Source: a virus. Taken from it: a DNA stretch of 59,891 nt. Every line of letters begins with the position of its first letter. Positions within the stretch are counted from its first letter, which is position 1. The position numbers and the translations under genes were made by a program. The notes under the pieces are model-generated. The model searched no databases. It was not told the DNA's origin and saw only the letters and a list, made by a program, of their open reading frames with translations. The stretch is taken from the IMG/VR virus record IMGVR_UViG_3300006111_000001; one strand, 5' to 3'. Below, in pieces: positions 34,846 to 59,891 of this stretch.

Positions 34846-35406
34846 TTACCCAAACCTCCGCCCGACAAATTCCGCATGCCGCTTAAATGACCGCTCCCGC
34901 TTCTTATCCAAAGGAAAATAAGCAATGGCAGCGTGATCCGCGCAATATGGCTTATTCGATAACTTTGCGTCTTGGCAGTAACGCCAAACATTATCTTGCG
35001 GCCCCGGATTGCCATAGACCCAGCAGCACCCGCACGGTTCTTTAACACCCTCACCGGCCACAACATCACCCCACGCCGGATCAATCGGCAGTGATTTAGA
35101 TACCAAGCGCGGCTTCATTGGTTCAGTGACCAGCCTGGGCATCCGCAGCCCTTTAAACCCCATCACGCGCTTTGCATGTGCCTTGGCCTTTGGCTTTTGT
35201 TCGACCGGCTCCTGATCCGCCCCCTTGGCATTTGACAGCTTAAGCCCCAACCGCCGCAATTGCCCCATAACTGCATTGCGCGTGATATGCCATCCAGCCG
35301 CCTCCGAAGCAATTAAAGCAATCTGGCTGGACGATGCCCCAGGAGTTTTTTCCCAAGCCTCTCGAATGTATTTGCGCGAGTCCGAAATCTGAATGGCGTT
35401 TCTCAT
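34846..35406 (-). CDS. GcrA-like cell-cycle regulator homolog
   Basis: 186 aa; N-terminal …SSSQIALIASEAAGWHITRNAVMGQLRRLGLKL matches the GcrA N-terminal DNA-binding pattern; C-terminal …CGCCWVYGNPGPQDNVWRYCQDAKLSNKPYCADHAAIAY matches the GcrA C-terminal Cys/His pattern. Confidence 0.7.
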   Translation of the reverse strand: MRNAIQISDSRKYIREAWEKTPGASSSQIALIASEAAGWHITRNAVMGQLRRLGLKLSNAKGADQEPVEQKPKAKAHAKRVMGFKGLRMPRLVTEPMKPRLVSKSLPIDPAWGDVVAGEGVKEPCGCCWVYGNPGPQDNVWRYCQDAKLSNKPYCADHAAIAYFPLDKKRERSFKRHAEFVGRRFG

Positions 35407-37032: not shown

Positions 37033-37907
37033 GCGGCATCCCCAAATAAATTTGATTGCCGATCAACGGAATCCAAATACCGGCACGCCTGGCGCCAATA
37101 AGCCTCTTTCAGTTCCGTGCCAATAAACTTTCGGCCTAGCTTGAGAGACATATACCCCTCAGATCCAATCCCCATAAATGGGCTCAAAACCACATCCCCG
37201 GCATTGCTCCACATAATCAAGGCCCGCTCAATCACATCAAGCTGCAATGGACACAAATGGCGCTCATCATTATGTTCCCGCGCCATGTGGACGTTCAAAA
37301 CATTGGATTGGTTGACAGTCATCCATACCGGGCTGGCCCATTCCTGCCATTGTTCAACGGGGAAATCTTCCGGCGTATGAGTGATAGGATCAGCATTCTC
37401 GCCCGGTTTCACAAACGTCAAAAGGTAATCGGGCATCCCGCCGCGACTTTTGGCGCTGTCTTTTTTTAGCTGCTTATAAAGCAAGCCGACATGCTTTGTA
37501 CGGGTCATTTCCGTGACAGGGCATTTCCAGATCGTGCGCCGTGAATGCAAAATCCATCCTTCCGCCTCATGAGCACGAATAATTTGCCCGCTGAAATCCT
37601 TGATCCCAACCGCGCCATCTTTCCATTTAGTCATCGGGAGATCGGAGCAATGAACGGCAGTCAGCCGCCCAGGTTTGGTTACACGGAATTTTTCGCGCAC
37701 CAAAAATTGATAATGGGCTGCAAATTCTTCATCAGTAGAATTGCCCATATCGGCGGCACTGGTCGAATAAACAAACAGCGATCCGAAAGGCGGCGAATAG
37801 ACCGAAAAATCAATGCTTTCGCTCGGTAACTGGCTTATGACGCTAACGCAGTCTCCGTTGAACGCCGCAAACCGCTCGCCGTGGTATTCGTTGTCGCAGT
37901 CAACCAT
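37029..37907 (-). CDS. DNA methyltransferase, N4/N6 class (beta permutation; SPPF motif)
   Basis: 292 aa; catalytic motif IV as …DFSVYSPPFG… precedes an AdoMet motif I-like …DVVLSPFMGIGSEG…; SPPF/SPPY is commonest in N4-cytosine enzymes but does not fix specificity. Confidence 0.7.
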   Translation of the reverse strand: MVDCDNEYHGERFAAFNGDCVSVISQLPSESIDFSVYSPPFGSLFVYSTSAADMGNSTDEEFAAHYQFLVREKFRVTKPGRLTAVHCSDLPMTKWKDGAVGIKDFSGQIIRAHEAEGWILHSRRTIWKCPVTEMTRTKHVGLLYKQLKKDSAKSRGGMPDYLLTFVKPGENADPITHTPEDFPVEQWQEWASPVWMTVNQSNVLNVHMAREHNDERHLCPLQLDVIERALIMWSNAGDVVLSPFMGIGSEGYMSLKLGRKFIGTELKEAYWRQACRYLDSVDRQSNLFGDAA

Positions 37908-42125: not shown

Positions 42126-42374
42126 CTAGCCAGCATTACGCACCTCATCATTTTGAGATTGCGGCAATGGCACCAAAAAAATGTCTGGCCTTAATTCGCA
42201 CCGGGAAATACCGGTTGCCCTTTCAATGGCCAACGCATTTTCGGCTGAAATCTTGGTTGAACGATTAACCCATGCCCAAATGGACGGCTGTTTGACCCCA
42301 ATGGCGCGGGCCAAGGCGTTTTGTCCACCGGCAATCTCTAATGCGCGTTGCAGCGCGGTTATAGGCGTGTTCAT
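42126..42374 (-). CDS. Cro-like HTH regulator
   Basis: Divergent from the CI-like gene. Track ORF begins at TTG 42410; the ATG at 42374 (MNTPITALQRALEIAGGQNALARAIGVKQPSIWAWVNRS…) is the more likely start. Confidence 0.55.
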   Translation of the reverse strand: MNTPITALQRALEIAGGQNALARAIGVKQPSIWAWVNRSTKISAENALAIERATGISRCELRPDIFLVPLPQSQNDEVRNAG

Positions 42375-42457
42375 AGGTTTGTCTATATAGGCAAACCAAA
42401 GCCGCGTCAATAGTGGATGCTATTGGAAAAATGAGTTTTTTTAATTAATGTGCGGAC
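42375..42457. promoter_or_regulatory. Divergent cI/cro-like switch region with operator-like palindromes
   Basis: Near-perfect palindrome GGTTTGtcTATATAggCAAACC (42375..42398) abutting the cro-like ATG; inverted repeat CAATAG-N6-CTATTG (42408..42425); candidate -35/-10 hexamers on both strands. Confidence 0.45.
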
Positions 42458-43120
42458 ATGGAAACTTTAGGTAAACGAGTGCGCGCCCGTCGCGCTGATT
42501 TAAAATTGTCTCAAGCGGAACTTGCCAGCCGCGTGGGCATATCTCAGCCGTCTTTATCAGCCATTGAAAATGACGAGACTCAAGGCACCACCAAAATATT
42601 AAAGCTGGCAGAAGTATTGGAATGTGACCCCAATTGGCTTTTGATGGGCAATAAACTAAAGTTTAGCGTCCCCAACAAACTTACAACTTATAAAAATAAT
42701 CCTGTTGCAAACGAATCAGTTTTTACTACCATCAATATGGGCAAAAGAGACTTACCTATTAGAGGTCTGGCTCAAGGGGGTGATGGGGTGCTAACATTTG
42801 ACCAAGACGCAATAGATTATACTTTTCGTCCATCTAATTTAGTCGGCATAGATGAAGCGTTTGCGCTTTATGTTACCGGCGACTCCATGGGCGAAGTCTT
42901 GATCCCAGGCACTTTGTTATTGGTTCACCCCAAACAAGAACCAAAAATTATGGATTTTGTCGTTATTGAAAAAATTGACCGATCCGTAATCGTTAAACGA
43001 TTGGTTCGCAGATCGGCCAATAGCGTCACCTTGCGCGAATACGACCCGCCCAATGATTTTGTGCTTTCTCGCAGCGAAATTCGAATGATGTTGCGGGTTT
43101 GCGGGACGGCCATGGAATGA
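42458..43120 (+). CDS. CI-like repressor (HTH_XRE plus S24 LexA-like peptidase domain)
   Basis: 220 aa; N-terminal …LKLSQAELASRVGISQPSLSAIENDET… HTH; C-terminal …FALYVTGDSMGEVLIPGTLLLVHP…VIVKRL… with Ser and Lys catalytic-dyad context. Confidence 0.8.
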   Translation: METLGKRVRARRADLKLSQAELASRVGISQPSLSAIENDETQGTTKILKLAEVLECDPNWLLMGNKLKFSVPNKLTTYKNNPVANESVFTTINMGKRDLPIRGLAQGGDGVLTFDQDAIDYTFRPSNLVGIDEAFALYVTGDSMGEVLIPGTLLLVHPKQEPKIMDFVVIEKIDRSVIVKRLVRRSANSVTLREYDPPNDFVLSRSEIRMMLRVCGTAME

Positions 43121-44179: not shown

Positions 44180-44740
44180 ATGCTATTCACAATCCCTTTC
44201 CGTTCATGGACTGGCAAAGCCGCATTTGAGGTCGAGATCGCCGACGATGTTGAACCGCGCTTTCAAATGCGCGCTGCCTTGTCGGTTGTGATCGGCAAAG
44301 CCAAAGAAAAGGGCGAACGTGCCAATCTCAGCCGTGCCGATCTCAGCGGTGCCGATCTCAGCGGTGCCTATCTCAGCGGTGCCGATCTCAGCGGTGCCTA
44401 TCTCAGCGGTGCCAATCTCAGCGGTGCCGATCTCAGCGGTGCCGATCTCAGCGGTGCCTATCTCAGCGGTGCCGATCTCAGCGGTGCCTATCTCAGCCGT
44501 GCTAAAGGTGCATTTTCGCTTGGAACGCCGGATGGTTGGTCGGCTGTTGCTTGGCTGCGCGACGGTTTCTTATCGATCCGCGTCGGTTGCCGAGATAAGC
44601 GGTTAGATGAAGCCCGCGCATATTGGGCCAATAAAAATGACCGGTGCGAAGTTATGGCGGCGCTGGATTACGCTGAAATAATTGCGCGCCTTCGTGGTTG
44701 GGCCATTGAAGCACCGGCTGAACAAGTGGCAGCGGAGTAA
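44180..44740 (+). CDS. Pentapeptide-repeat protein
   Basis: 186 aa; central run of ~12 consecutive pentapeptides A(D/N/Y)LSG ([25 protein letters not shown]…) flanked by unique N- and C-terminal segments. Confidence 0.75.
44327..44503 (+). repeat. Tandem 15-bp repeat (~11.8 copies) encoding the pentapeptide repeats
   Basis: Near-identical units ctcagcggtgccgat / ctcagcggtgcctat / ctcagcggtgccaat in head-to-tail array. Confidence 0.9.
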
Positions 44741-48513: not shown

Positions 48514-48882
48514 ATGGATGACAAAAACCCAATGCGTCAAATATTGACTGACAACATAAGGCAATCTGCCCGCATTAGGGAGCTTGAGGCGGCTTTGCGT
48601 TTGATTATTGACGCCGCCAAAAGTGGTTCAGATACCAGTGTTCTTCAAAACTTTGCAGCCGACGCGCTGCACTCAAAAAAGGCCCGCCCAATGATCGCTG
48701 GACACCCGGAAGTCACCAAGAAAACCTATGCCCAAGAACGCGATAAGGTTGAGCGGGCCGTAAGGTTCGCCATTGGTGCAGTCCATAACGGCTTGGGGGC
48801 CGATCATCAGGTTCCCGCCGAAACGGTTGCAAAACTGACCGCGCAAATTGAGCGCGATTTCCTTGTCGAAATTATGGAATAG
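48514..48882 (+). CDS. Hypothetical protein
   Basis: 122 aa ORF. Confidence 0.4.
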   Translation: MDDKNPMRQILTDNIRQSARIRELEAALRLIIDAAKSGSDTSVLQNFAADALHSKKARPMIAGHPEVTKKTYAQERDKVERAVRFAIGAVHNGLGADHQVPAETVAKLTAQIERDFLVEIME

Positions 48883-49216
48883 AGGCCCCAACCATGAATG
48901 CCTTGGACACTCACACGATCACAATTAACGTGACGCCACTCGACCTAGCCGCGCTGCATCAATTGTTGGTCGTAAATCACGCTTTGGCCGGTAGCATGGG
49001 TCACGCGGCCCAAAAAGACCTTAAAGCGTTAATTGGCGTCCTTGATGGGCTGATTGTTCAAATCTCAATTGGAATTAATCGATAAGAAAGGCCACTCGCG
49101 TCGATGCCGCCCTTAACCCCGAAACCACCAACGCATAGGGCGGCGAACCGTCGGCGCTTCCAGCACCGAGCCGGGGCGGTGGCCCTATGCACCCCGGCGA
49201 TTAACAAAAGGAGACA

Positions 49217-50341: not shown

Positions 50342-51375
50342 GCCTCAGCGTGCCACGGCTCCATATCGTCGGGGACCGCTTTTATTGGCGCCCCACGGCC
50401 CCTATCCGTGCTTTGGGGTTTTCTTACGAGGCTTTGGGCAAAGACCCCATGAAAGCCGCTGCAAGGGCCAGGGAGCTTAATGAACAGGTCGAGCGGGCCA
50501 AACTAGGGTTGGATGCCAGGACCAAGCGCGGCGACACGGTGGCAGCCCTGATCGACGCCTATCAGTCCTGCCCCCGGTATAAGAGCCGGGCGGAAACCAC
50601 CCGAAAGGGCTATGACCATTTCCTAAAACACATCCGCGCGCTTGCCGGGCATGTCATTGTGGCGACCATTGACCGGCCCGGCATGTTGCAGACCTATGAG
50701 AAGCTAATCGCCGCCAGGGGCCTTTATACCGCCAATGCGTATATGAAGGTCTGGCAGATATTGCTTAAGCACGCCTATGACCTCGGATGGCGCAAAGATA
50801 ACCCCGCCGCCGGGCTTGGGCTTCAAACGCCGCCGCCGCGAGAGCAAGTCTGGACGGTCGATCAAATCCTTGCATTTTGTGATGCCGCCGTGGAAATGGG
50901 CAGGCCGTCCATGCGTCTGGCGATGCTATTGGCCTATGACCTTGGGCAACGCCCTGGCGACTATATCAAGCTGACTTGGACCACTTACACCGGGTCCGGG
51001 TTTATGATTAAGCAGTCCAAGACCAAAACCCGCGTCAATGCGCCGTTCGAAAACCCGTTTCTTTGGGCTGAAATCGACGCCATGCCGCGCAAACACTCGC
51101 ATGTCTTGATTTGTGAGGGGACCAAAGCCCCCTATAAGGCTGATTATTTCCGGCACCTATGCACCAAGATCAGGCGCGCGGCCAAACTGCCGGAACAGCT
51201 TCAATTCCGCGATCTGCGCCGGACAGCCGCCACGGAAATTGGCAATGCCGGGGCAACAGATGATCAGTTACGGGCGCTCCAAGGCTGGAAAACCCGGAAT
51301 CAGGCGGCGACTTATGTGGTGGTATCGTCAGCCGGTGCCGAAGGCGCTCAAGCGAAACGGAGGGCGAACAGGTAA
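50323..51375 (+). CDS. int: Tyrosine integrase
   Basis: 350 aa; N-terminal SAM-like and C-terminal catalytic patterns (…GQRPGDYIKLTW…, …FRDLRRTAATEIGNAG…LQGWKTRNQAATYV…). Confidence 0.8.
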   Translation: MGQIRLSLSVPRLHIVGDRFYWRPTAPIRALGFSYEALGKDPMKAAARARELNEQVERAKLGLDARTKRGDTVAALIDAYQSCPRYKSRAETTRKGYDHFLKHIRALAGHVIVATIDRPGMLQTYEKLIAARGLYTANAYMKVWQILLKHAYDLGWRKDNPAAGLGLQTPPPREQVWTVDQILAFCDAAVEMGRPSMRLAMLLAYDLGQRPGDYIKLTWTTYTGSGFMIKQSKTKTRVNAPFENPFLWAEIDAMPRKHSHVLICEGTKAPYKADYFRHLCTKIRRAAKLPEQLQFRDLRRTAATEIGNAGATDDQLRALQGWKTRNQAATYVVVSSAGAEGAQAKRRANR

Positions 51376-51453
51376 AGGATCAGGTGTAATTTTCGTTACA
51401 CTTTGGGGGTTTTTCAGGGGCTAAGGATTTTCCCTAACCCCTTGAAAAATCTT

Positions 51454-51500
51454 GGTGAGCGCGATGGGATTCGAACCCATGACCCTTTGATTAAAAGTAT
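51454..51500 (-). other. tRNA 3'-end fragment (T-arm, acceptor 3' strand and CCA): probable attP core
   Basis: Minus-strand reading …ATGGG-TTCGAAT-CCCAT-CGCGCTC-A-CCA gives a canonical T stem-loop, a 7-nt acceptor 3' strand, discriminator and CCA; no matching 5' acceptor strand (GAGCGCG) upstream, so not a complete tRNA gene. Confidence 0.55.
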
Positions 51501-51614
51501 CATGCACCCCTAGCAAATCCGCCATTTTTTACACTTGTTCTGCGTCTGTTCATGTATGATATATCAATGACTTACGGGCTAAGTGTAACGGCAGTTTGAT
51601 GGAAAAGTGATAAA

Positions 51615-51983
51615 ATGGCAGGAGATGTTTCAGTCAATTTGGCGCCACAAACATCAAAACTGGAAAATTCAACCAAAACCAGTTTTGTTTATTTGGTCCG
51701 CAGCGGGCAACATTTAAAAATTGGCAGAACGAAAAATGTTCAAGCCAGATTTTTGGCTTTGCAAAATGCCACACCCGCCAAATTACGTTTAATCCGGTAT
51801 TTTGAAGTGCCCGCCGAAGAAGTGATCGGGATAGAATATGAAGCCATGGTAACTTTAAAATCCCAGGGCTATCACGTTCGAGGCGAGTGGTTTTCGGCGC
51901 CCACCGATTTAGCTTTAAGGGCTATCTATCAAGCAATTGAAGCCGCAAAGCCTAATGGCAAGCCAATTGTGACTCCGGCCTAG
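51615..51983 (+). CDS. T5orf172 (GIY-YIG-like) domain protein
   Basis: 122 aa; …SFVYLVRSGQHLKIGRTKNVQARFLALQNATPAKLRLI…GEWFSAP… follows the T5orf172 pattern. Confidence 0.6.
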   Translation: MAGDVSVNLAPQTSKLENSTKTSFVYLVRSGQHLKIGRTKNVQARFLALQNATPAKLRLIRYFEVPAEEVIGIEYEAMVTLKSQGYHVRGEWFSAPTDLALRAIYQAIEAAKPNGKPIVTPA

Positions 51984-52107
51984 CGCGAACAATATCGGTT
52001 TAGGCTGACACAGAATCGGACACATCATTTGTCAGGGGTGTTCTGGTTTTGCCCCATATATTATTCATTATTGGGTTTATTGAACATTATATGGGTCATC
52101 CCGGCTC

Positions 52108-52362
52108 CTATTTTGCTTCTCGCGCTAATTTGCGCGCTGGAATGGTTTTACAAAAATCAATTATTTGGATACAAGATTTACAAGTGACTTTGCCGCGCTC
52201 AGATTTGACAAAGAAATCATTACCTTCTTCGCCATCAAGCGAAAACCCACAAAGCGTATAATCTTCACCAGTCACAGAACCAGAATGAGCGATACCATTA
52301 TTTTCTATCCAAATCGCAATCATCGGTCGCTCCTTAATAATAAATGGACAAATCGCCTGCAC
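52108..52362 (-). CDS. Hypothetical small Cys-containing protein
   Basis: 84 aa; AT-richer accessory region. Confidence 0.3.
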   Translation of the reverse strand: MQAICPFIIKERPMIAIWIENNGIAHSGSVTGEDYTLCGFSLDGEEGNDFFVKSERGKVTCKSCIQIIDFCKTIPARKLAREAK

Positions 52363-52612
52363 ACGCTTGTCCCATGTCTTTCGTGGTGCAGTACGGATGG
52401 GTCATAGCAGCTCCTTATTTCATGTAACTGGTCACGCCGGATATTTTTTCCATATCGGCTTTAATAACTTCATTGACCACATGATAATGCCATCGCCAAA
52501 GCAATGAAATGACTTCATCTCTAGCGCGTCCGCGAGGCATAACCCACAAACCAAAATGGATTATATGTCGCGTCAAAGAATATCGAAAATTTTTCACGGC
52601 GACTCGCTCCTT

Positions 52613-52825
52613 TTATGCCGCTTTGATCATTGCCGTATAGCAAATGGCAGTTGTTTGTTTAGGCGGCGGGTAATCTTCGAACGGCGACAATGCGTCTATT
52701 TTGTTTTGATCCATGAGTTCTAACGCAGCTTGTAACCCAGCCGATATTTGTTTGTCAGTTGGTTCTTTGGGAACAATGACAAACCCTTGGGGGCATAGAT
52801 AAGTTAAAAGTTTAATCCACATCAT
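52613..52825 (-). CDS. Hypothetical small protein
   Basis: 70 aa. Confidence 0.3.
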   Translation of the reverse strand: MMWIKLLTYLCPQGFVIVPKEPTDKQISAGLQAALELMDQNKIDALSPFEDYPPPKQTTAICYTAMIKAA

Positions 52826-53010
52826 CGGCTCCTTAATAATTGGCGCGGGCTATCGCAGTCCACCATCCGGTAGCTGGATTATCTCTTACCGTACCCCCGC
52901 GCAGCACAGTCGTATTCTGTCGGAAATGTCCCCTATGGGCGTCATCAGCGGTCATCCGGCTCTGAATGACTTGAGATTGACCAAGACAGAAATCAGTCAA
53001 TTCGATGCTC

Positions 53011-53235
53011 CTATTGTGCAGTTTGTTTAAACCCAAAATATTCTGGATCGTCTGAAATTAAGTCAAATACTTTTCCATATTTCAAATCTAGCTTTTCATG
53101 GACAAGTGCCCAATGTGCTCCATCTGACAGGTCAAGCGTTTCGACCTCATCCATTATTTCTTTGATGCGCTTTTTAGACGGGTTCATGGTCGCTCCTTTA
53201 TTCCCAATTTTCATTATTAGCGCGGTCAACCGCAT
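53011..53235 (-). CDS. Hypothetical small protein
   Basis: 74 aa. Confidence 0.3.
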   Translation of the reverse strand: MRLTALIMKIGNKGATMNPSKKRIKEIMDEVETLDLSDGAHWALVHEKLDLKYGKVFDLISDDPEYFGFKQTAQ

Positions 53236-53395
53236 CTACGCCAATCGCCAATTTCTGCGCCTCGGTGAAAGTGTCCCATATTTCTCTTGTTTTGTAACCA
53301 ACGTGATTGCGCCAATTATGCACTCGACCGCCTTTCCCCCAAGATTGGGGAACTTCGAGGATTTCTTTGATAAGATATTCATCAAGCTCGTCCAT
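53198..53395 (-). CDS. Hypothetical small protein
   Basis: 65 aa. Confidence 0.3.
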   Translation of the reverse strand: MDELDEYLIKEILEVPQSWGKGGRVHNWRNHVGYKTREIWDTFTEAQKLAIGVDAVDRANNENWE

Positions 53396-53404
53396 TACCG
53401 GCTC

Positions 53405-54031
53405 CTAATTTGCTTTGCGCTTTTTGCAATCGCGCAATCGTGTGTAAATAATGCTTTCGCTGACTTTCAGCTTGGCCGCGATTTGCTTGATCGTCAGCCC
53501 TTCCTTGCGGAGGGCTTTAATCTGTTTCAGCTTTTCAGCGGTTAGTTTCTTGGGCGCACCTTGCCAGCCGCCCTCACGTTCTTTAAACGCCTGAATACCG
53601 GCTTTAGTCCGTTCAATGGTTAGCTGGCGTTCAAATTCCGCGACAATGGCGAATAGGCCAAGGATTAGCTTGCCGGTTGCTGTGCTGAAATCGAATTGCT
53701 CTGTCAGGGATTTAAAAGACGCGCCCGCATCGGAAATCTGGTCTAGCCGTGCGTATAGTTCACGCATATTGCGGGCCAGCCGATCTAGACGCCAGACCAC
53801 AAGGGTATCGCCCTCGCGCAAATCTTTCATGGCGTGTTCAAGTGCCGGTCTGGACTTAGACGCCGCCGATTTTTTTTCGATGTGGAGATTGTCGGGCAAC
53901 ACCCCGGCACGCTTAAGCGCGTCCACTTGAAGGTCAAGTTTCTGATCTTCTGTGAACACGCGGGCATACCCGATTAATCGGGTCGCGGGCAGGTCTGGCA
54001 ATTTTGTGCGTCGTTTCAAAACCATGACCAC
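53405..54031 (-). CDS. Serine recombinase (Hin/Gin invertase-resolvase family) with Phe in place of the catalytic Ser
   Basis: 208 aa; strong family match (…DTLVVWRLDRLARNMRELYARLDQISDAGASFKSLTEQFDFSTATGKLILGLFAIVAEFERQLTIERTKAG… plus C-terminal HTH), but the nucleophile motif reads GYARVFTEDQ (codon ttc) instead of GYARVSTxxQ. Confidence 0.75.
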   Translation of the reverse strand: MVMVLKRRTKLPDLPATRLIGYARVFTEDQKLDLQVDALKRAGVLPDNLHIEKKSAASKSRPALEHAMKDLREGDTLVVWRLDRLARNMRELYARLDQISDAGASFKSLTEQFDFSTATGKLILGLFAIVAEFERQLTIERTKAGIQAFKEREGGWQGAPKKLTAEKLKQIKALRKEGLTIKQIAAKLKVSESIIYTRLRDCKKRKAN

Positions 54032-54119
54032 ATTTTACATGAAACGGCCAGATAGTCAACAAATAGCGTATGATTTTTACACTGGAATTAGCGAATGGCT
54101 ATTGCAGTCTAATTTGATC

Positions 54120-54140
54120 CGTGTATAATGGGGACACCAA
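54120..54140 (+). promoter_or_regulatory. Candidate extended -10 promoter for the plus-strand accessory operon
   Basis: …tgTATAATggggaca… (TGnTATAAT) ~25 nt upstream of the 54156 ATG, followed by GGAG RBS. Confidence 0.35.
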
Positions 54141-54155
54141 CACGGAGACACGACA

Positions 54156-54374
54156 ATGACCATCGAAAAGAATATTTCAATTTTTGACGGAAACGACCAG
54201 GAACACGCCGAATTTATTCGCGGCTGCGTCAAAAGCCTTGGCGGTGAAATCCCCGCTCATTGGTCAGACGAAGCGGTAATCGAGTTTTTTAATACCCTGT
54301 CTAACGATGCCCCGCGCATTTATACGGACATGGAAAAAGCAGATATGAAATATCAAGCCCAAATGGCTGAATAA
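54156..54374 (+). CDS. Hypothetical protein
   Basis: 72 aa; first gene of the plus-strand accessory operon. Confidence 0.4.
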   Translation: MTIEKNISIFDGNDQEHAEFIRGCVKSLGGEIPAHWSDEAVIEFFNTLSNDAPRIYTDMEKADMKYQAQMAE

Positions 54375-54388
54375 GAAAGGCCCGACTA

Positions 54389-54652
54389 ATGCGTTATGTT
54401 CTTGAGGGTGAATGGAGCGGATACGTAAGCGCCCAACAAAAGGTGCATCATCGGGAAATTGTGCCCGCATCTTTGGTTAAGGATATGCGACTGCACACAA
54501 TCCAATTTACCGATGGAACTTATTTGAGGATTAAGTGTTGGGAAGCCAAGCCGCGTGAACGCATTGAAACCAAAGACCAGTATGGCCGGTTGATACGTGA
54601 CGCAATTCGGATTGGCAAACCTTTTGTCACCGTCAGCGAACTCAAGCAATAA
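54389..54652 (+). CDS. Hypothetical protein
   Basis: 87 aa; preceded by the conserved TAA-AAAGGCCC-N5-ATG junction. Confidence 0.4.
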   Translation: MRYVLEGEWSGYVSAQQKVHHREIVPASLVKDMRLHTIQFTDGTYLRIKCWEAKPRERIETKDQYGRLIRDAIRIGKPFVTVSELKQ

Positions 54653-54663
54653 AGGCCCGCTCC

Positions 54664-55182
54664 ATGCGCGACATTCACAAAGACATTGGCGAAAAGCTAA
54701 AAGCAACGCTTGATGCTGCAATAGGCGAGACTGCGCTTAAAGCCGTCAAAGAAAAGACAAAAGAAATTATCCAAGAAATTGAAGATGATCTTGAATACCG
54801 CGTCAAAGATGATCTGGCTTACAATTTGGTCGAATATGTGGCCGATATGGCAAACAAAACAATTGACGCTTTATTGCGCGGCAATGAAAACGAAATGCGC
54901 CGGTATCTTGGTTGCGAACGTGGCGCTTGGACAGGTCGAAGCGATGCCGATGTATGTGGTGCCAAGCGTCCAGACGATCAATGGCACCAAGTCATAAACG
55001 GCACCTTGTCCGAATATGGCGGCTTAGATTTACGGCGCAAAATCGCAGATGCTTACGCCGATCTTATCAAAAATGAGCGCATTCTTGATTTGGAAAATCA
55101 GGTGAAATGCCTTGTTGCCCAGGTTAATAAATTGGAAGCCCAAAAACGTGACATTTGGGAACGCCGTGGCGAATACGCTTAA
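54664..55182 (+). CDS. Hypothetical coiled-coil protein
   Basis: 172 aa; preceded by the conserved AAAGGCCC junction. Confidence 0.4.
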   Translation: MRDIHKDIGEKLKATLDAAIGETALKAVKEKTKEIIQEIEDDLEYRVKDDLAYNLVEYVADMANKTIDALLRGNENEMRRYLGCERGAWTGRSDADVCGAKRPDDQWHQVINGTLSEYGGLDLRRKIADAYADLIKNERILDLENQVKCLVAQVNKLEAQKRDIWERRGEYA

Positions 55183-55204
55183 CCCTAGAATAAAGGCCCC
55201 GACT

Positions 55205-55456
55205 ATGACCTTATCAGATTTAGTTGACCAAGCATCCGATCTTGCCGCAGACCTGCACAACAAGGCCGCATTGATTGAGCGCGGTAAAGCCAATCTTAAC
55301 CTAAGCGGCGATGCGGATCATTCCGTGATCCAAGCGTTTACATCACTGGCAACGGCGGCGGCTGCAATGGCAAACGCTTTGATAATGCAAAGCGCATTGA
55401 CCAAGCAAAAAGCCGACAATGACGCAATCCGCGCCACCCTCAAAGCTAAACAATAA
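55205..55456 (+). CDS. Hypothetical protein
   Basis: 84 aa from ATG at 55205 (in frame within track ORF 55112..55456); preceded by AAAGGCCCCGACT. Confidence 0.35.
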   Translation: MTLSDLVDQASDLAADLHNKAALIERGKANLNLSGDADHSVIQAFTSLATAAAAMANALIMQSALTKQKADNDAIRATLKAKQ

Positions 55457-55467
55457 AGGCCCAGACC

Positions 55468-55650
55468 ATGATCCGCAGACGCGCCAAAATCACCATTACG
55501 GTATCCGTTGATTTGGATGATGTGCCGGGTGCTTACTACCAGCCCGAAGATTGGGTGCAAATGATGACAGGTGAAATTTTGTCTCGCGCCAATCACTATA
55601 ACCCAAAACTTGAAGCCACTGACATTGAAGTCAGTCGCATCACTCAATAA
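55468..55650 (+). CDS. Hypothetical protein
   Basis: 60 aa; preceded by AAAGGCCCAGACC. Confidence 0.35.
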   Translation: MIRRRAKITITVSVDLDDVPGAYYQPEDWVQMMTGEILSRANHYNPKLEATDIEVSRITQ

Positions 55651-55661
55651 GGCCCCGCGCT

Positions 55662-56834
55662 TTGATTCGCTCATTCAACTACATCCCAGCGCGTGCAGCC
55701 GGTCAAATTTTGTTTGACGGATTCCCATATCAATCCGCGATTGAGTGGCCCAATTTCATTCATGGCCAATGTCAAAACATTCAAGCCAATGGTCAGCCCG
55801 ATCAATTTGGATGGCGATACAAAACCATTGACGGCACCCCTTACCTTTTGGCCGATGACCCATTTGTGGTCAAATTAAAAAACGCAATGGTTCAGCGCGT
55901 CAATTTTGGTCAAGACCGCTGGCACGTTGCCGTCAGCCCAGGGGTTTGTATTGAAGAAACCTATTATTCGGGCGAATGGTTTAACCGTTTTTGCGGTCAA
56001 ACCATGAGAATCCCCACCAATGCCGGATCGTTTGACGTGCATGTCATGGAAGATATTGCGCCAGAGTCGGTGTCATCCGTCCCCAGCGTATTATTGGCTC
56101 ATCAATGGGACACGAATTATGCGCATTGCCTAATGGAAACCGTGGGAAAATTGTTTTTAGCAGAACATTGGGACGATCATTTGCCGCAGCTAATCTGGAA
56201 CCCGACAACCCCATATCAGCGCGAGATTGCGGATTTGCTATCAATCAAATACGTTCCGCAAACCCAAAAAGCCGTTCAATACGATGAATTATATGTCATT
56301 TCCCAATTTGCCCATAACGGGATTTGCGCGGAACAGTTCAAACAAATCCGCGCGCTGTTTCAACAAAGGCTTTGCGACAAAATCCCTTATTTCTCAAATC
56401 CCCCAGTTACATCAGGCAACAAGCGCATTCTGATTTCCAGAAACGACGCCACCAGCCGCCGTATTGCTAATGAATCAAACATAATGACCGCCCTGGCTCC
56501 CATGGGCTTTGAGCGTGTCACGTTGAGCAATTTAAGCGTGCTCGACCAGGCCAAGCTATTTCATTCAGCATCAATCATTGTGGCGCCACACGGCGCCGGA
56601 TTAATGAATATGCTGTTTGCCAGCCCCAGCACCGCCTTGATTGAAATTGCCCCCGAATCCTACCAGCACCCTTTGTTCTGGTACGTCGCCAAGTGGTTGG
56701 GCCATTGGTACGGGCGAATCATCACCCCGGATCACGGTTCCGAAAAAGACATGATTGTTGACATTGCGGCGGTTAAAAACGCCATTGACGCCGCCATATC
56801 GTCTAAAAGTGTACGGTCATCACTTGTTGCATAG
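55662..56834 (+). CDS. Glycosyltransferase, GT61/DUF563-like
   Basis: 390 aa; C-terminal …RILISRNDATSRRIANESNIMTALAPMGFERVTL…LFHSASIIVAPHGAGLMNMLFASP… resembles the DUF563/GT61 core. Confidence 0.55.
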   Translation: MIRSFNYIPARAAGQILFDGFPYQSAIEWPNFIHGQCQNIQANGQPDQFGWRYKTIDGTPYLLADDPFVVKLKNAMVQRVNFGQDRWHVAVSPGVCIEETYYSGEWFNRFCGQTMRIPTNAGSFDVHVMEDIAPESVSSVPSVLLAHQWDTNYAHCLMETVGKLFLAEHWDDHLPQLIWNPTTPYQREIADLLSIKYVPQTQKAVQYDELYVISQFAHNGICAEQFKQIRALFQQRLCDKIPYFSNPPVTSGNKRILISRNDATSRRIANESNIMTALAPMGFERVTLSNLSVLDQAKLFHSASIIVAPHGAGLMNMLFASPSTALIEIAPESYQHPLFWYVAKWLGHWYGRIITPDHGSEKDMIVDIAAVKNAIDAAISSKSVRSSLVA

Positions 56835-56889
56835 CTAAAAAGGCATCAAGGTAAATAAAAACGCCTTTTAACCCCTTGGAGTAACGACA

Positions 56890-57378
56890 ATGAAAAACGC
56901 CCTATTAGCTTTATTGGCCCTAATGTTTATTGCACCCCCAGCCATGGCCGGAGGAACGCCGTGTCAAATGTTCGCCGGGTATTTTCGCTGTAACGGCGGC
57001 AATCAGGCTTTATGGGTGCCAAATTCCGGCCTGTATTGGAACCCCAGCGAAGGCGGTACAAGCTGGACCATCCAACAATCCACCAATGGCCACACAATCC
57101 TGATTTCTGGCCTTGGATGGAGCGATACCGGCAACGGCAATGCAGATTGGTATTTGGCCAGACTAGAGCCGGTTGACACCGAAACGGCGCCTAACGTTTA
57201 TACGTCAACGTCAACAATTCAGTGCATCGGCGGTCAAGGTCTGTCATCGCCCAATTATCTTGCGCCCAATTGCGTTTTGACCGGCAAATCCATTTCGCTA
57301 ACGCTGGAAAGCACAACGGCTGGCACTTTGGTTTACGGCACCAGAACCAGCCACGTTGAAAATTACGTCAATTTTTAG
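56890..57378 (+). CDS. Secreted protein (signal peptide)
   Basis: 162 aa; MKNALLALLALMFIAPPAMAGG leader; last gene of the plus-strand accessory operon. Confidence 0.45.
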   Translation: MKNALLALLALMFIAPPAMAGGTPCQMFAGYFRCNGGNQALWVPNSGLYWNPSEGGTSWTIQQSTNGHTILISGLGWSDTGNGNADWYLARLEPVDTETAPNVYTSTSTIQCIGGQGLSSPNYLAPNCVLTGKSISLTLESTTAGTLVYGTRTSHVENYVNF

Positions 57379-57640
57379 TCCGGCAATTGGCTTCGACATT
57401 ACGATTGTGAATAACCGCCCATTGCTTTTCCGAACGCGTCCATCTTGATTCAAAATCTGAATCAGGATGGACTTCGGAAAGCCACCCGCACGCAGTTGGA
57501 TTAGGCGCCGGATTTTCCGCGCAACTCGCTGTCAAGATCAGCGTCAGACATGCGCCGCACATCATCATGAATGATTTGAGCATTTCGATCCTCCGCAACA
57601 GCGGATTGCAAATCAACCGCTTGTTGTTCAATTCGGCCAT
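57368..57640 (-). CDS. Lipoprotein, o-spanin-like (overlapping the i-spanin-like gene)
   Basis: Lipobox-like …LILTASC…, Pro-rich; overlaps 57501..57734 in another frame as in Rz/Rz1 pairs; likely starts at an internal Met. Confidence 0.4.
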   Translation of the reverse strand: MAELNNKRLICNPLLRRIEMLKSFMMMCGACLTLILTASCAENPAPNPTACGWLSEVHPDSDFESRWTRSEKQWAVIHNRNVEANCRTKN

Positions 57641-58907: not shown

Positions 58908-59759
58908 TTACCAAAAGATTGCCGCGTAACCCGCTGTTGCGTTACCACCTGATTGCGCGCTTGTACCAGCAGCGGCACCACCGCCACCACCACCATATCC
59001 AGAAGCATTACCGCCCGCTGCACCAGCGGCAGTAGCGTTGGCTCCATCGCCACCTTTGCCTAAGTACCCACCACCACCACCACCACCAGCCGTGCCGGAA
59101 GCTGCGCCCGATCCCCCCAAAGATGAACTTGAAAATAATGAGGCTGCACCATAGCCGCCTTGATAGACTGTACCTGAGTTGCGTTGACCAGCACCACCAC
59201 CACCTGGATAACCGCCGTCAGTAGAAGTGGTTGATCCAGAATAAATACCGCCCGGACCGCCACCACCAGACATGCCCCCTGGATAAACAAGCGCTTTATT
59301 AAGGCCACCACCGGCTGAGTAAGTAACACCACCAACAACTAACGTGGTAGCTGTGCCATTACCGCCAATTGCACCACTTGCAGCAGCGCCAGCAGCGCCA
59401 ATTGTTATGGTTGCACTAGACCCAATGTAGACGGGGAAAAATTCAACGCCACCAGCACCACCGCCGCCGCCGCCCTCTGTTCCACTTGCAGGGGTGCCAT
59501 TGCCAGCAGCACCCCCGCCAACAAGTAAAACGTAATAAACGCCATACCCTTTGCCTTGCGTGACCGGATTAAATGTCCCGCTTGCCGTGTAGGCAACTTG
59601 ATAATTAAGACCGCTTAGGCCAATAAATGCTTTGCCAGCAGCGGGACCCGCCCCAGGCGCAACATTCAACGGCGTTGCAACCGCAAAGCCTAACTGACCA
59701 ATTGCGAATAAAAGCGCAATTAATCCAAAGCGAAGATTCTTAAGCATTTTAGAAATCAC
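58908..59759 (-). CDS. Glycine-rich fibre-module protein with signal-peptide-like N-terminus
   Basis: 283 aa; MISKMLKNLRFGLIALLFAIGQLGFAVA leader; long poly-Gly/Ala/Ser tracts; precedes the lysis cassette. Confidence 0.5.
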   Translation of the reverse strand: MISKMLKNLRFGLIALLFAIGQLGFAVATPLNVAPGAGPAAGKAFIGLSGLNYQVAYTASGTFNPVTQGKGYGVYYVLLVGGGAAGNGTPASGTEGGGGGGAGGVEFFPVYIGSSATITIGAAGAAASGAIGGNGTATTLVVGGVTYSAGGGLNKALVYPGGMSGGGGPGGIYSGSTTSTDGGYPGGGGAGQRNSGTVYQGGYGAASLFSSSSLGGSGAASGTAGGGGGGGYLGKGGDGANATAAGAAGGNASGYGGGGGGAAAGTSAQSGGNATAGYAAIFW

Positions 59760-59771
59760 CGCAAACAGAGG

Positions 59772-59891
59772 TCAGATTGATATAGGTTGACGTGGAAACG
59801 GTCGGAGTCGCCGTCAACGTATCGCCGCTTTTCAAAAACAAATATGGATTTCCATAATTGTCCAATGGCAAACCCTGCCAAGTTGCAGAAT
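59772..59891. repeat. Terminal direct repeat, right copy (identical to 1..120)
   Basis: Exact 120-nt match to window start; implies a unit genome of ~59771 bp. Confidence 0.9.

Follow-up and report, generated by a model that had tools for sequence, protein, structure and literature searches.

A repeated junction of stop codon, weak ribosome-binding site, CCC and start codon in an accessory operon of a temperate phage

Cluster K mycobacteriophages carry a short repeat, the start-associated sequence (SAS), with the consensus GGGATAGGAGCCC (Pope et al. 2011, PMC3203893). It joins a Shine-Dalgarno (SD) core to conserved flanks unable to pair with ribosomal RNA (rRNA), lies 3–7 bp before start codons of non-structural genes only, in one orientation, and often holds the upstream stop codon; its role is unknown (PMC3203893, PMC11373665, PMC12699233). 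In T4-like phages, recombination between the repeats of PeSL cassettes shuffles genes (Arbiol et al. 2010, PMC2839356). Here we describe a junction of comparable build in virus record IMGVR_UViG_3300006111_000001, a stretch of 59,891 nucleotides (nt) analysed over its whole length and referred to below as the window. The junction is a repeat of 11–20 bases composed of a stop codon, a weak ribosome-binding site, CCC and a start codon, and it links consecutive genes of a + strand operon. We put at roughly one in two the probability that it acts as an array-specific translation-initiation and coupling signal of a polycistronic accessory operon in the attP-proximal 'b-region'.

Both the SAS and the window motif are short asymmetric repeats in a single orientation a few nucleotides before start codons, both are found on non-structural genes only, and both combine an SD core with non-pairing flanks that include a 3' CCC, as judged in the window with two standard 16S tails. 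Both often contain the stop codon of the upstream gene, and both are tied to unrelated genes across related phages. By sequence, however, the window motif is not a member of the cluster K SAS family. Matches to the SAS consensus are not in excess in the window (9 with at most three mismatches against 11.6 expected), many copies within two mismatches were not found, and among the junctions only that at 48876 (GGAATAGAGGCCC) appears in the three-mismatch set. The window motif also has a weaker SD core (AAGG rather than AGGAG) and fewer copies (7–8, in one operon and one other spot), lacks ESAS-like inverted repeats, and is linked to a serine-recombinase module. The phage lineage differs as well: no GenBank phage matched the window at the DNA level, and a GcrA-like gene together with relatives in Pseudorhodoplanes and other metagenome-assembled genomes (MAGs) points away from cluster K.

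The junction motif and its placement

On the + strand, AAGGCCC occurs at 54377, 54652, 55193, 55456 and 55649, each time in the short gap between two successive + strand genes. An earlier sequence-only reading of this DNA had proposed repeated stop–motif–start junctions at five genes, and the motif is indeed present in all five consecutive gaps. The string it had given, (A)AAGGCCC(G/C/A), is there, but the unit common to the five junctions (54372–55664) is longer: [C/G]AATAAAGGCCC-N5-ATG. Of the two related junctions it had listed elsewhere, 48880–48896 is a true sixth junction, whereas 49083–49096 is an orphan with no start, and a further copy at 48675–48693 had been missed. The copies are:

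54369..54391, + strand: junction 1, AATAAGAAAGGCCCGACTAATG (tabulated as AATAAGAAAGGCCCGACTA ATG); stop TAA at 54372–54374, start at 54389
54646..54666, + strand: junction 2, GCAATAAAGGCCCGCTCCATG (tabulated as GCAATAAAGGCCCGCTCC ATG)
55180..55207, + strand: junction 3, TAACCCTAGAATAAAGGCCCCGACTATG (tabulated from 55187 as AGAATAAAGGCCCCGACT ATG)
55450..55470, + strand: junction 4, ACAATAAAGGCCCAGACCATG (tabulated as ACAATAAAGGCCCAGACC ATG)
55644..55664, + strand: junction 5, TCAATAAGGCCCCGCGCTTTG (tabulated as TCAATAAGGCCCCGCGCT TTG); one A shorter, with a TTG start
48876..48896, + strand: sixth junction, in the early-left operon, GGAATAGAGGCCCCAACCATG (GGAATAGAGGCCCCAACC ATG; core 48880–48896, TAGAGGCCCCAACCATG); precedes a 63-aa gene
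49083..49096, + strand: orphan copy behind the 63-aa gene, TAAGAAAGGCCAC; no start at the motif distance
48675..48693, + strand: copy inside the open reading frame (ORF) 48514–48882, AAAAAAGGCCCGCCCA ATG; in-frame ATG at 48691

The starts behind the array motifs are ATG at 54389, 54664, 55205 and 55468, and TTG at 55662. In five of the six junctions the start follows the GG at a distance of 8 nt, and in the remaining one, with the TTG of 55662, at 9 nt. Measured from the 3' end of the motif, the start is 5 nt away (6 nt in one case) at all six and at the internal ATG of 48691, and every copy located at a start is on the coding strand. The five array junctions have stop-to-start gaps of 14, 11, 22, 11 and 11 nt. 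The proposal that a stop stands within ~12 nt of each start is thus correct for the 11-nt gaps and not for the others: at junction 3 the in-frame stop is at 55180–55182, 22 nt upstream, and the TAA touching the motif is out of frame. All five array genes that end at a junction stop with TAA, compared to 36% genome-wide. The 63-aa gene at 48894–49085 has motif copies on both sides, and a homologue search with it found none; the ATG at 48691 is a possible internal start, which would give a 63-aa C-terminal isoform.

Could this pattern arise by chance, or reflect the ribosome-binding context of the genome at large? The total number of AAGGCCC copies (12 in the whole window against 9.7 expected) is not above chance, and GAGGCC does stand upstream of a few other genes (4 of 78). 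What is non-random is placement, since 5 of the 11 + strand copies occupy five consecutive intercistronic junctions. Leave-one-out weight-matrix scores reach 19–25 bits at four sites, against a 95th percentile of 18.9 bits for the best hit in 200 shuffled genomes; the copy at 48675–48693, which was not in the training set, scores 21.6 bits, and scores of at least 21 bits were obtained in 3 of the 200 shuffled genomes. Motif copies are confined to the accessory and early-left operons, with none at the starts of structural or replication genes.

For the comparison with general ribosome-binding sites, starts were re-picked for 84 genes, and pairing energies were computed with two standard 16S tails (E. 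coli-type and UUUCU-type), from which the tail of the host may differ. Most of the 84 genes use GGAG, GAGG or AGGAG, and GGAG, GAGG or AGGA is present in 37 of the 78 non-array genes. AGGCC lies within 20 nt upstream of 6/6 array-type starts and 4/78 others. Mean pairing is –3.8 kcal/mol at array-type junctions and –7.1 at the other 78 genes with the E. coli-type tail, and –5.3 versus –7.4 kcal/mol with the UUUCU-type tail; the AAGG of the motif pairs weakly, at –3.2 to –5.8 kcal/mol. Even within the operon, the junction-linked cistrons 2–6 lack an ordinary GGAG SD, which cistron 1 has. The motif is therefore not the general ribosome-binding site of this phage, and pairing to 16S rRNA does not account for the bases conserved most, CCC and AAUAA. 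The survey of binding sites, the comparison of array with other genes and the shuffled-genome scores refute chance or a genome-wide context, an explanation to which we give next to no credence. Tandem gene duplication as the source of the repeats is likewise ruled out: all-against-all BLASTP detected no paralogy among the array proteins.

Junction RNAs are no more structured than their shuffles at six sites (z = –0.4 to +1.5), and the motif is mostly unpaired. Junction 5 is the exception (z = –2.9), with predicted stems that flank AAUAAGGCCC and pair into its CGCGCU spacer. An RNA hairpin, or an SD sequestered until an upstream ribosome melts it, is thus unsupported. No inverted repeats and no promoter-like or terminator-like sites were detected at the junctions, and Rfam returned no match anywhere in the window; the motif was identified neither with a known RNA family nor with a tRNA. 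Two further candidates were discarded: the motif as one half of a terminator, the window having no GGGCCTT partner arms, and an antisense partner, the sole reverse-complement copy (GGGCCTTTA, at 50718–50726 within the integrase gene) being what chance predicts.

Three further observations concern the motif and its surroundings. GGCC is under-represented across the window (observed/expected 0.72), yet present at every array junction. The 11-mer AAGGCCCGCTC, the same as in junction 2, recurs at 37219–37229 (+), opposite the coding strand of a methyltransferase gene on the minus strand, probably by chance. Between the orphan copy and the gene that follows lies a GC-rich stretch of ~110 nt (49104–49216, +) with two imperfect hairpins, which does not exceed its shuffles in stability (z = –0.4); the gene behind it carries its own AAAGGAG SD.

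Arrays of the same layout in other phages

The recombinase gene beside the operon was used as an anchor for homologue searches in IMG/VR, GTDB genomes and metagenomes.

53405..54025, − strand: small serine recombinase (Gin/Hin-like, PF00239), transcribed away from the operon

Its closest homologues (45–62% identity) are in the loci that we number L011–L015, L017, L089, L090 and L170–L173. L089 is a Pseudorhodoplanes MAG, and L090, identical to L015, was binned as Bryobacteraceae. The same layout is found in ten phage or prophage loci (L011–L015, L017, L089, L170, L172 and L173), while the sequence of L171 ends before any junction and contains the promoter and leader alone. The layout starts with a divergent promoter, overlapped in most of the ten loci by the palindromic sequence TTGACAA..TTGTCAA. 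Next comes a first gene whose SD is of the GGGAGAC type (leader ACACGGAGACACGACAATG in the window, compared with ACACGGGAGACGGACATG in L017 and GACAGGGAGACGGATATG in L171), and then a string of small genes linked by a stop, (A/G)GGCC(C/G), 0–7 nt and ATG. The junction reads TTGAAGGAATAGGCCCNATGGCA in L012, where it occurs several times, TAGAGAAAGGCCCGCAGATG in L017 and TAGAGGCCGCNNNATG in L173, where it occurs four times; L015 has GAAAGGAATAGGCCCCGATG and ACTCAATAAAGGCCCATG, the latter containing CAATAAAGGCCC, which is identical to window junctions 2 and 4.

A loose regular expression for stop–GGCC–start run over 168 loci was too noisy, and array and non-array genes were compared instead. By counts that rest on a crude gene caller, GGCC or GCCC lies at most 16 nt from the start in 14/30 array genes of the ten relative loci and in 12/199 of their non-array genes (Fisher p = 7e-8), the latter having ordinary SD contexts; in the window the corresponding figures are 5/7 and 12/77 (p = 0.003). 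The junction pattern was absent from ~70 loci with more distant Gin/Cin-like invertases. Gene content differs almost entirely between arrays, with only two weak cross-array similarities, and of 53 array proteins none has a Pfam match and five match PHROGs of unassigned function. That the junction style recurs in equivalent arrays of other phages suggests that it is probably a special translation signal, which may also aid gene shuffling.

Regarding the promoters of these arrays, the palindrome, TTGACAA(N3–6)TTGTCAA/GTCAAGG, overlaps the promoter in most of L011–L015, L089 and L170, with a second upstream half-site in several. It is probably an operator, and the version in the window is degenerate.

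A recombinase that diverges from a promoter reading into promoterless small genes, with a short conserved repeat after each of them, the last included, recalls an integron, and the junctions could be imagined as recombination sites of the adjacent enzyme in a platform for cassette capture. The neighbour is, however, a serine and not an IntI-type tyrosine recombinase, and when aligned to Gin structures it has Phe at the position of the catalytic Ser9 (LIGYARVFTEDQ versus LIGYVRVSTNDQ): its motif reads GYARVFT, compared to GYARVST in 15/15 relatives examined. This substitution makes site-specific cassette exchange by this protein unlikely in this phage. The protein has kept its helix-turn-helix domain and is the same in every fetched phage copy that spans the gene; it is probably inactive as a recombinase, but retained. 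The repeat also differs from known sites. Small serine recombinases act on dyads of ~26–30 bp. Here the repeat spans 6–25 nt with a conserved core of 6–12 nt, has neither inverted half-sites nor the paired inverted core sites of attC, and forms no junction hairpins. Direct repeats would moreover give deletion, and spacing and flanks vary among relatives. We consider this explanation very unlikely.

Translation and coupling, copying or regulation

The operon linked by the junctions comprises the following features:

54102..54129, + strand: putative sigma-70-type promoter (TTGCAG, 16 nt, TATAAT), read from the sequence, between the recombinase and the first cistron
54144..54158, + strand: ordinary SD (GGAG) and ATG of cistron 1, with a leader resembling those of L017 and L171
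54156..54374, + strand: cistron 1, 72 aa, no known family
54389..54652, + strand: cistron 2, 87 aa, one distant homologue (51% identity)
54664..55182, + strand: cistron 3, 172 aa, a conserved phage protein family without assigned function
55205..55456, + strand: cistron 4, 83 aa, no known family
55468..55650, + strand: cistron 5, 60 aa, no known family
55662..56834, + strand: cistron 6, 390 aa, GT61-family glycosyltransferase (Pfam PF04577, E = 7e-25)
56890..57378, + strand: cistron 7, 162 aa, with an ordinary GGAG SD and a 55-nt gap in front

A consensus promoter scan did not return the site at 54102..54129 because its –35 hexamer fits at only 3/6 positions. Independent metagenome gene calls gave the same seven products (72, 87, 172, 83, 60, 390 and 162 aa), the TTG start included. 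No Pfam or NCBIfam matches, and no informative PHROG matches, were obtained for the small array proteins. The cistron 2 homologue belongs to an ordinary early operon of another phage, with overlapping junctions from which the motif is absent, and the homologues of cistron 3 (45–57% identity) are in early or recombination regions of other phages with ordinary overlapping junctions, again without the motif; this rules out that the motif travels with the gene.

In the interpretation that we favour, transcription would start from the putative promoter at ~54102–54129, and cistron 1 would initiate independently at its ordinary GGAG SD. Access to each of cistrons 2–6 would then be by termination and reinitiation: a ribosome fresh from a stop 11–22 nt upstream would re-engage through a weak SD (AAAGG, with GG 8 nt before the AUG) fused to the UAA stop, in an unstructured context with an A-rich 5' side and a C-rich 3' side. 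The bases outside the SD (AAUAA and CCC) would make the junction a start-associated sequence built like that of cluster K, from purines, TAG/TAA, an SD core and CCC. As a likely secondary consequence, the repeated junctions would serve as microhomology for duplicating and shuffling small genes. The suggestion of a shared ribosome-binding or translational-coupling element, made in the sequence-only reading, is the best supported one, albeit with a weak SD and with CCC and AAUAA left over by 16S pairing.

Ordinary coupled junctions (UAAGGAG..AUG) share with the window a stop fused to a purine-rich SD-like element, gaps of 11–22 nt and constant spacing to the AUG. A textbook case lies next door:

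52108..53395, − strand: second array, with five or six small genes that run the same way as the recombinase gene

Its junctions read (T)AA(A)GGAGC(G/C) (TAAGGAGC junctions), a strong canonical SD, and an equivalent array is found downstream of the recombinase in L017 and L090, with junctions TAGGAGGCC and TAGAGGAGC respectively. In the operon under study, by contrast, what is left of the SD is AAGG or AAAGG, an invariant CCC comes directly after it, a string of 11–12 nt is conserved beyond what pairing needs, and the style is kept across phages for one array only.

Several observations weigh against a purely translational role. The junction contains just a weak SD, and pairing to rRNA leaves the bases conserved most, GGCCC, without explanation. 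GGCC and ATG are 0 to 7 nt apart in relatives, where the SD is often an AAGGA of its own further upstream. Copies that have no start behind them are present at 49083 in the window, twice in L017, and at the 3' ends of the last called genes in L011, L015 and L172, the L015 copy being followed by a terminator. Junction repeats in relatives also extend 24–63 nt into the flanking ORFs, which looks like DNA copying and not like selection on a ribosome site.

These points lead to the main competing explanation, in which conservation acts at the DNA level. The junctions would be microhomology 'linkers' for duplication, loss and exchange of small genes, made alike by repeated copying (concerted evolution), with translation incidental. 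Arrays that share a junction style, recombinase, promoter and leader carry almost wholly unrelated genes, and orphan copies follow last genes as well as the 63-aa gene (48894–49085). In L173, a perfect 25-nt junction repeat gives the same SQESK C-terminus to two unrelated proteins; of the sites of a 25-nt repeat in L015, one is read in frame whereas another comes after an earlier stop; and a 63-nt repeat (97% identity) and a 33-nt repeat in L089 indicate local duplications. Junction 3 keeps its motif TAA despite the wrong frame, and among the phage's own products are exonuclease VIII, a Sak4-like annealase and SSB. There is also a precedent in the shuffling mediated by PeSL cassettes in T4-like phages (PMC2839356). 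Like these cassettes, the window junctions are short repeated regulatory elements that punctuate small non-essential genes of unassigned function in a variable region. PeSLs, however, are promoter-plus-terminator stem-loops, while the window junctions hold neither promoter nor hairpin, and here shuffling would have to be deduced.

Against DNA linkers stand the strict start-codon spacing and coding-strand polarity in the window, which are what a translation signal predicts, and the modest repeats of the window itself, merely 19–23 nt at 75–90% identity. The comparison that the sequence-only reading had put forward, cassette presence or absence in related phages, returned no close pair differing by one cassette, or with cassette breakpoints at the motif, among GenBank phages, IMG/VR and other metagenomes, but only near-identical copies of this phage; all copies in public metagenomes, more than 12, are identical across the array. 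Three facts do point circumstantially to copying or shuffling of junctions: the gene-less copies, the 24–63-nt repeats in relatives and the variable gene content. The earlier idea of a recombination scar keeps this much support, and is opposed by the missing cassette pair and by a recombinase without its catalytic serine. We regard the DNA-level account as possible, though less than probable; it is compatible with a translation signal.

We regard as doubtful a broader proposal, in which the stop–GGCC–start junction is the cassette boundary of a conserved phage-borne gene-shuffling platform. Such a platform would combine a serine-recombinase gene with a promoter and palindromic operator, a leader that stays fixed, and variable 'formatted' small genes, gained, lost and swapped at the junctions and under a translational regime of their own, with a logic like that of integrons or PeSLs and a distinct mechanism.

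Conserved bases in excess of an SD, specificity to the array and recurrence with one recombinase clade might instead reflect binding by a trans-acting factor that turns all genes of the array on or off together, be it an RNA-binding protein, a small RNA or a DNA-binding protein such as the dead recombinase. T4 RegA, which acts on the initiation regions of early genes, and the stoperators of cluster A phages are comparable cases. A Phe at the nucleophile position, with the helix-turn-helix kept and the protein identical between copies, suggests a role for the recombinase other than recombination, and a similar idea has been put forward for the SAS (PMC3203893). The motif nevertheless lacks dyad symmetry, and relatives have their obvious operator in the palindrome at the array promoter, which differs from the motif in sequence. 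No copy of the motif is present in the operon promoter region (54032–54155) or the divergent cI/cro region (42300–42500), and no candidate factor or Rfam hit was found. Like stoperators, the motif is an asymmetric repeat of ~13 bp that lies within short intergenic gaps in the direction of transcription. Stoperators, however, work on transcription and have the sequence of the repressor's operator at the early promoter, whereas the window motif is absent from the promoters examined and its register is tied to start codons. We therefore think a trans-acting factor unlikely.

Phage genome and accessory setting

A 120-bp direct repeat common to both ends (1–120 and 59772–59891) indicates that the genome in the window is complete, and either circular or terminally redundant; ~59.8 kb of it is unique. 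More than 20 metagenome contigs contain near-identical copies of this phage. Its gene map is lambda-like:

457–42410, − strand: tail, head, portal and replication genes
42479–43120: cI-like repressor
to 51375, + strand: early-left operon (exonuclease VIII, Sak4-like annealase, SSB, small genes, tyrosine integrase)
50350–51375, + strand: tyrosine integrase, adjoining attP, 3 kb from the array
~51450–51505, − strand: 3' half of a tRNA directly past the integrase (anticodon loop CTTTTAA, T arm ATGGGTTCGAATCCCAT, acceptor end GCTCACCA, terminal CCA)

The partial tRNA, for which ARAGORN makes no call because it is partial, is likely the attP core. With attP here, the stretch from 51.6 to 59.8 kb would separate it from the tail genes, which is where accessory genes are classically located. 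A GcrA-like protein (34846–35406, −; NCBIfam sig70cofacGcrA, E = 5e-13, under the curated cut-off) suggests an alphaproteobacterial host, which this temperate phage probably infects.

As the sequence-only reading had anticipated by eye, the region 51400–57400 is AT-rich: its GC content is 47.0% versus 51.1% overall, the lowest of all 6-kb windows (z = –3.3), and the second array at 52108–53395 is the lowest-GC part of the genome, with 38–45% GC in most of its genes. Codon usage also sets these genes apart from the remaining genome: p is 0.005 over the region, 0.011 over the operon and 0.059 when the five small genes are taken by themselves. The compositional deviation of the region is modest. 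Composition like that of the remaining genome and a motif matching the general ribosome-binding context were what would have refuted the sequence-only reading; neither was observed. The suggestion of accessory cargo fits the location between attP and the tail genes, as well as the products encoded: cistron 6, a GT61 glycosyltransferase, has a distant match to EOGT and POMGNT2 structures, and cistron 7, with an N-terminus that resembles a signal peptide, looks secreted. Together with the proximity to attP, these two proteins are consistent with a role of the operon in lysogenic conversion or surface modification.

Two loci outside the array were recorded in passing. The early-left operon encodes a pentapeptide-repeat protein (44180–44740, +), which could be a DNA mimic and in which 44319–44502 comprises 12 copies of a 15-nt unit. 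The metagenome copies are otherwise 99.9–100% identical, but L253 differs at ~29 positions within ~240 nt (59085–59325), the first seven of these differences being shared by L001/L250. This hypervariable patch is inside a Gly-rich, collagen-like gene (58908–59759, −), possibly a tail fibre, and its substitutions are not adenine-specific.

The SAS has stood unexplained in one mycobacteriophage cluster since 2011, and the same architecture is now seen in unrelated, probably alphaproteobacterial, temperate phages, which suggests a more general way in which phages give accessory genes translation rules of their own. The window element provides a second, independent system for studying the role of the non-SD bases. 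Conserved modules of recombinase and promoter with variable small genes are likely hot spots for accessory genes, for host-surface modification and possibly anti-defence, and the junction string can be used as a handle to search for such arrays in metagenomes.

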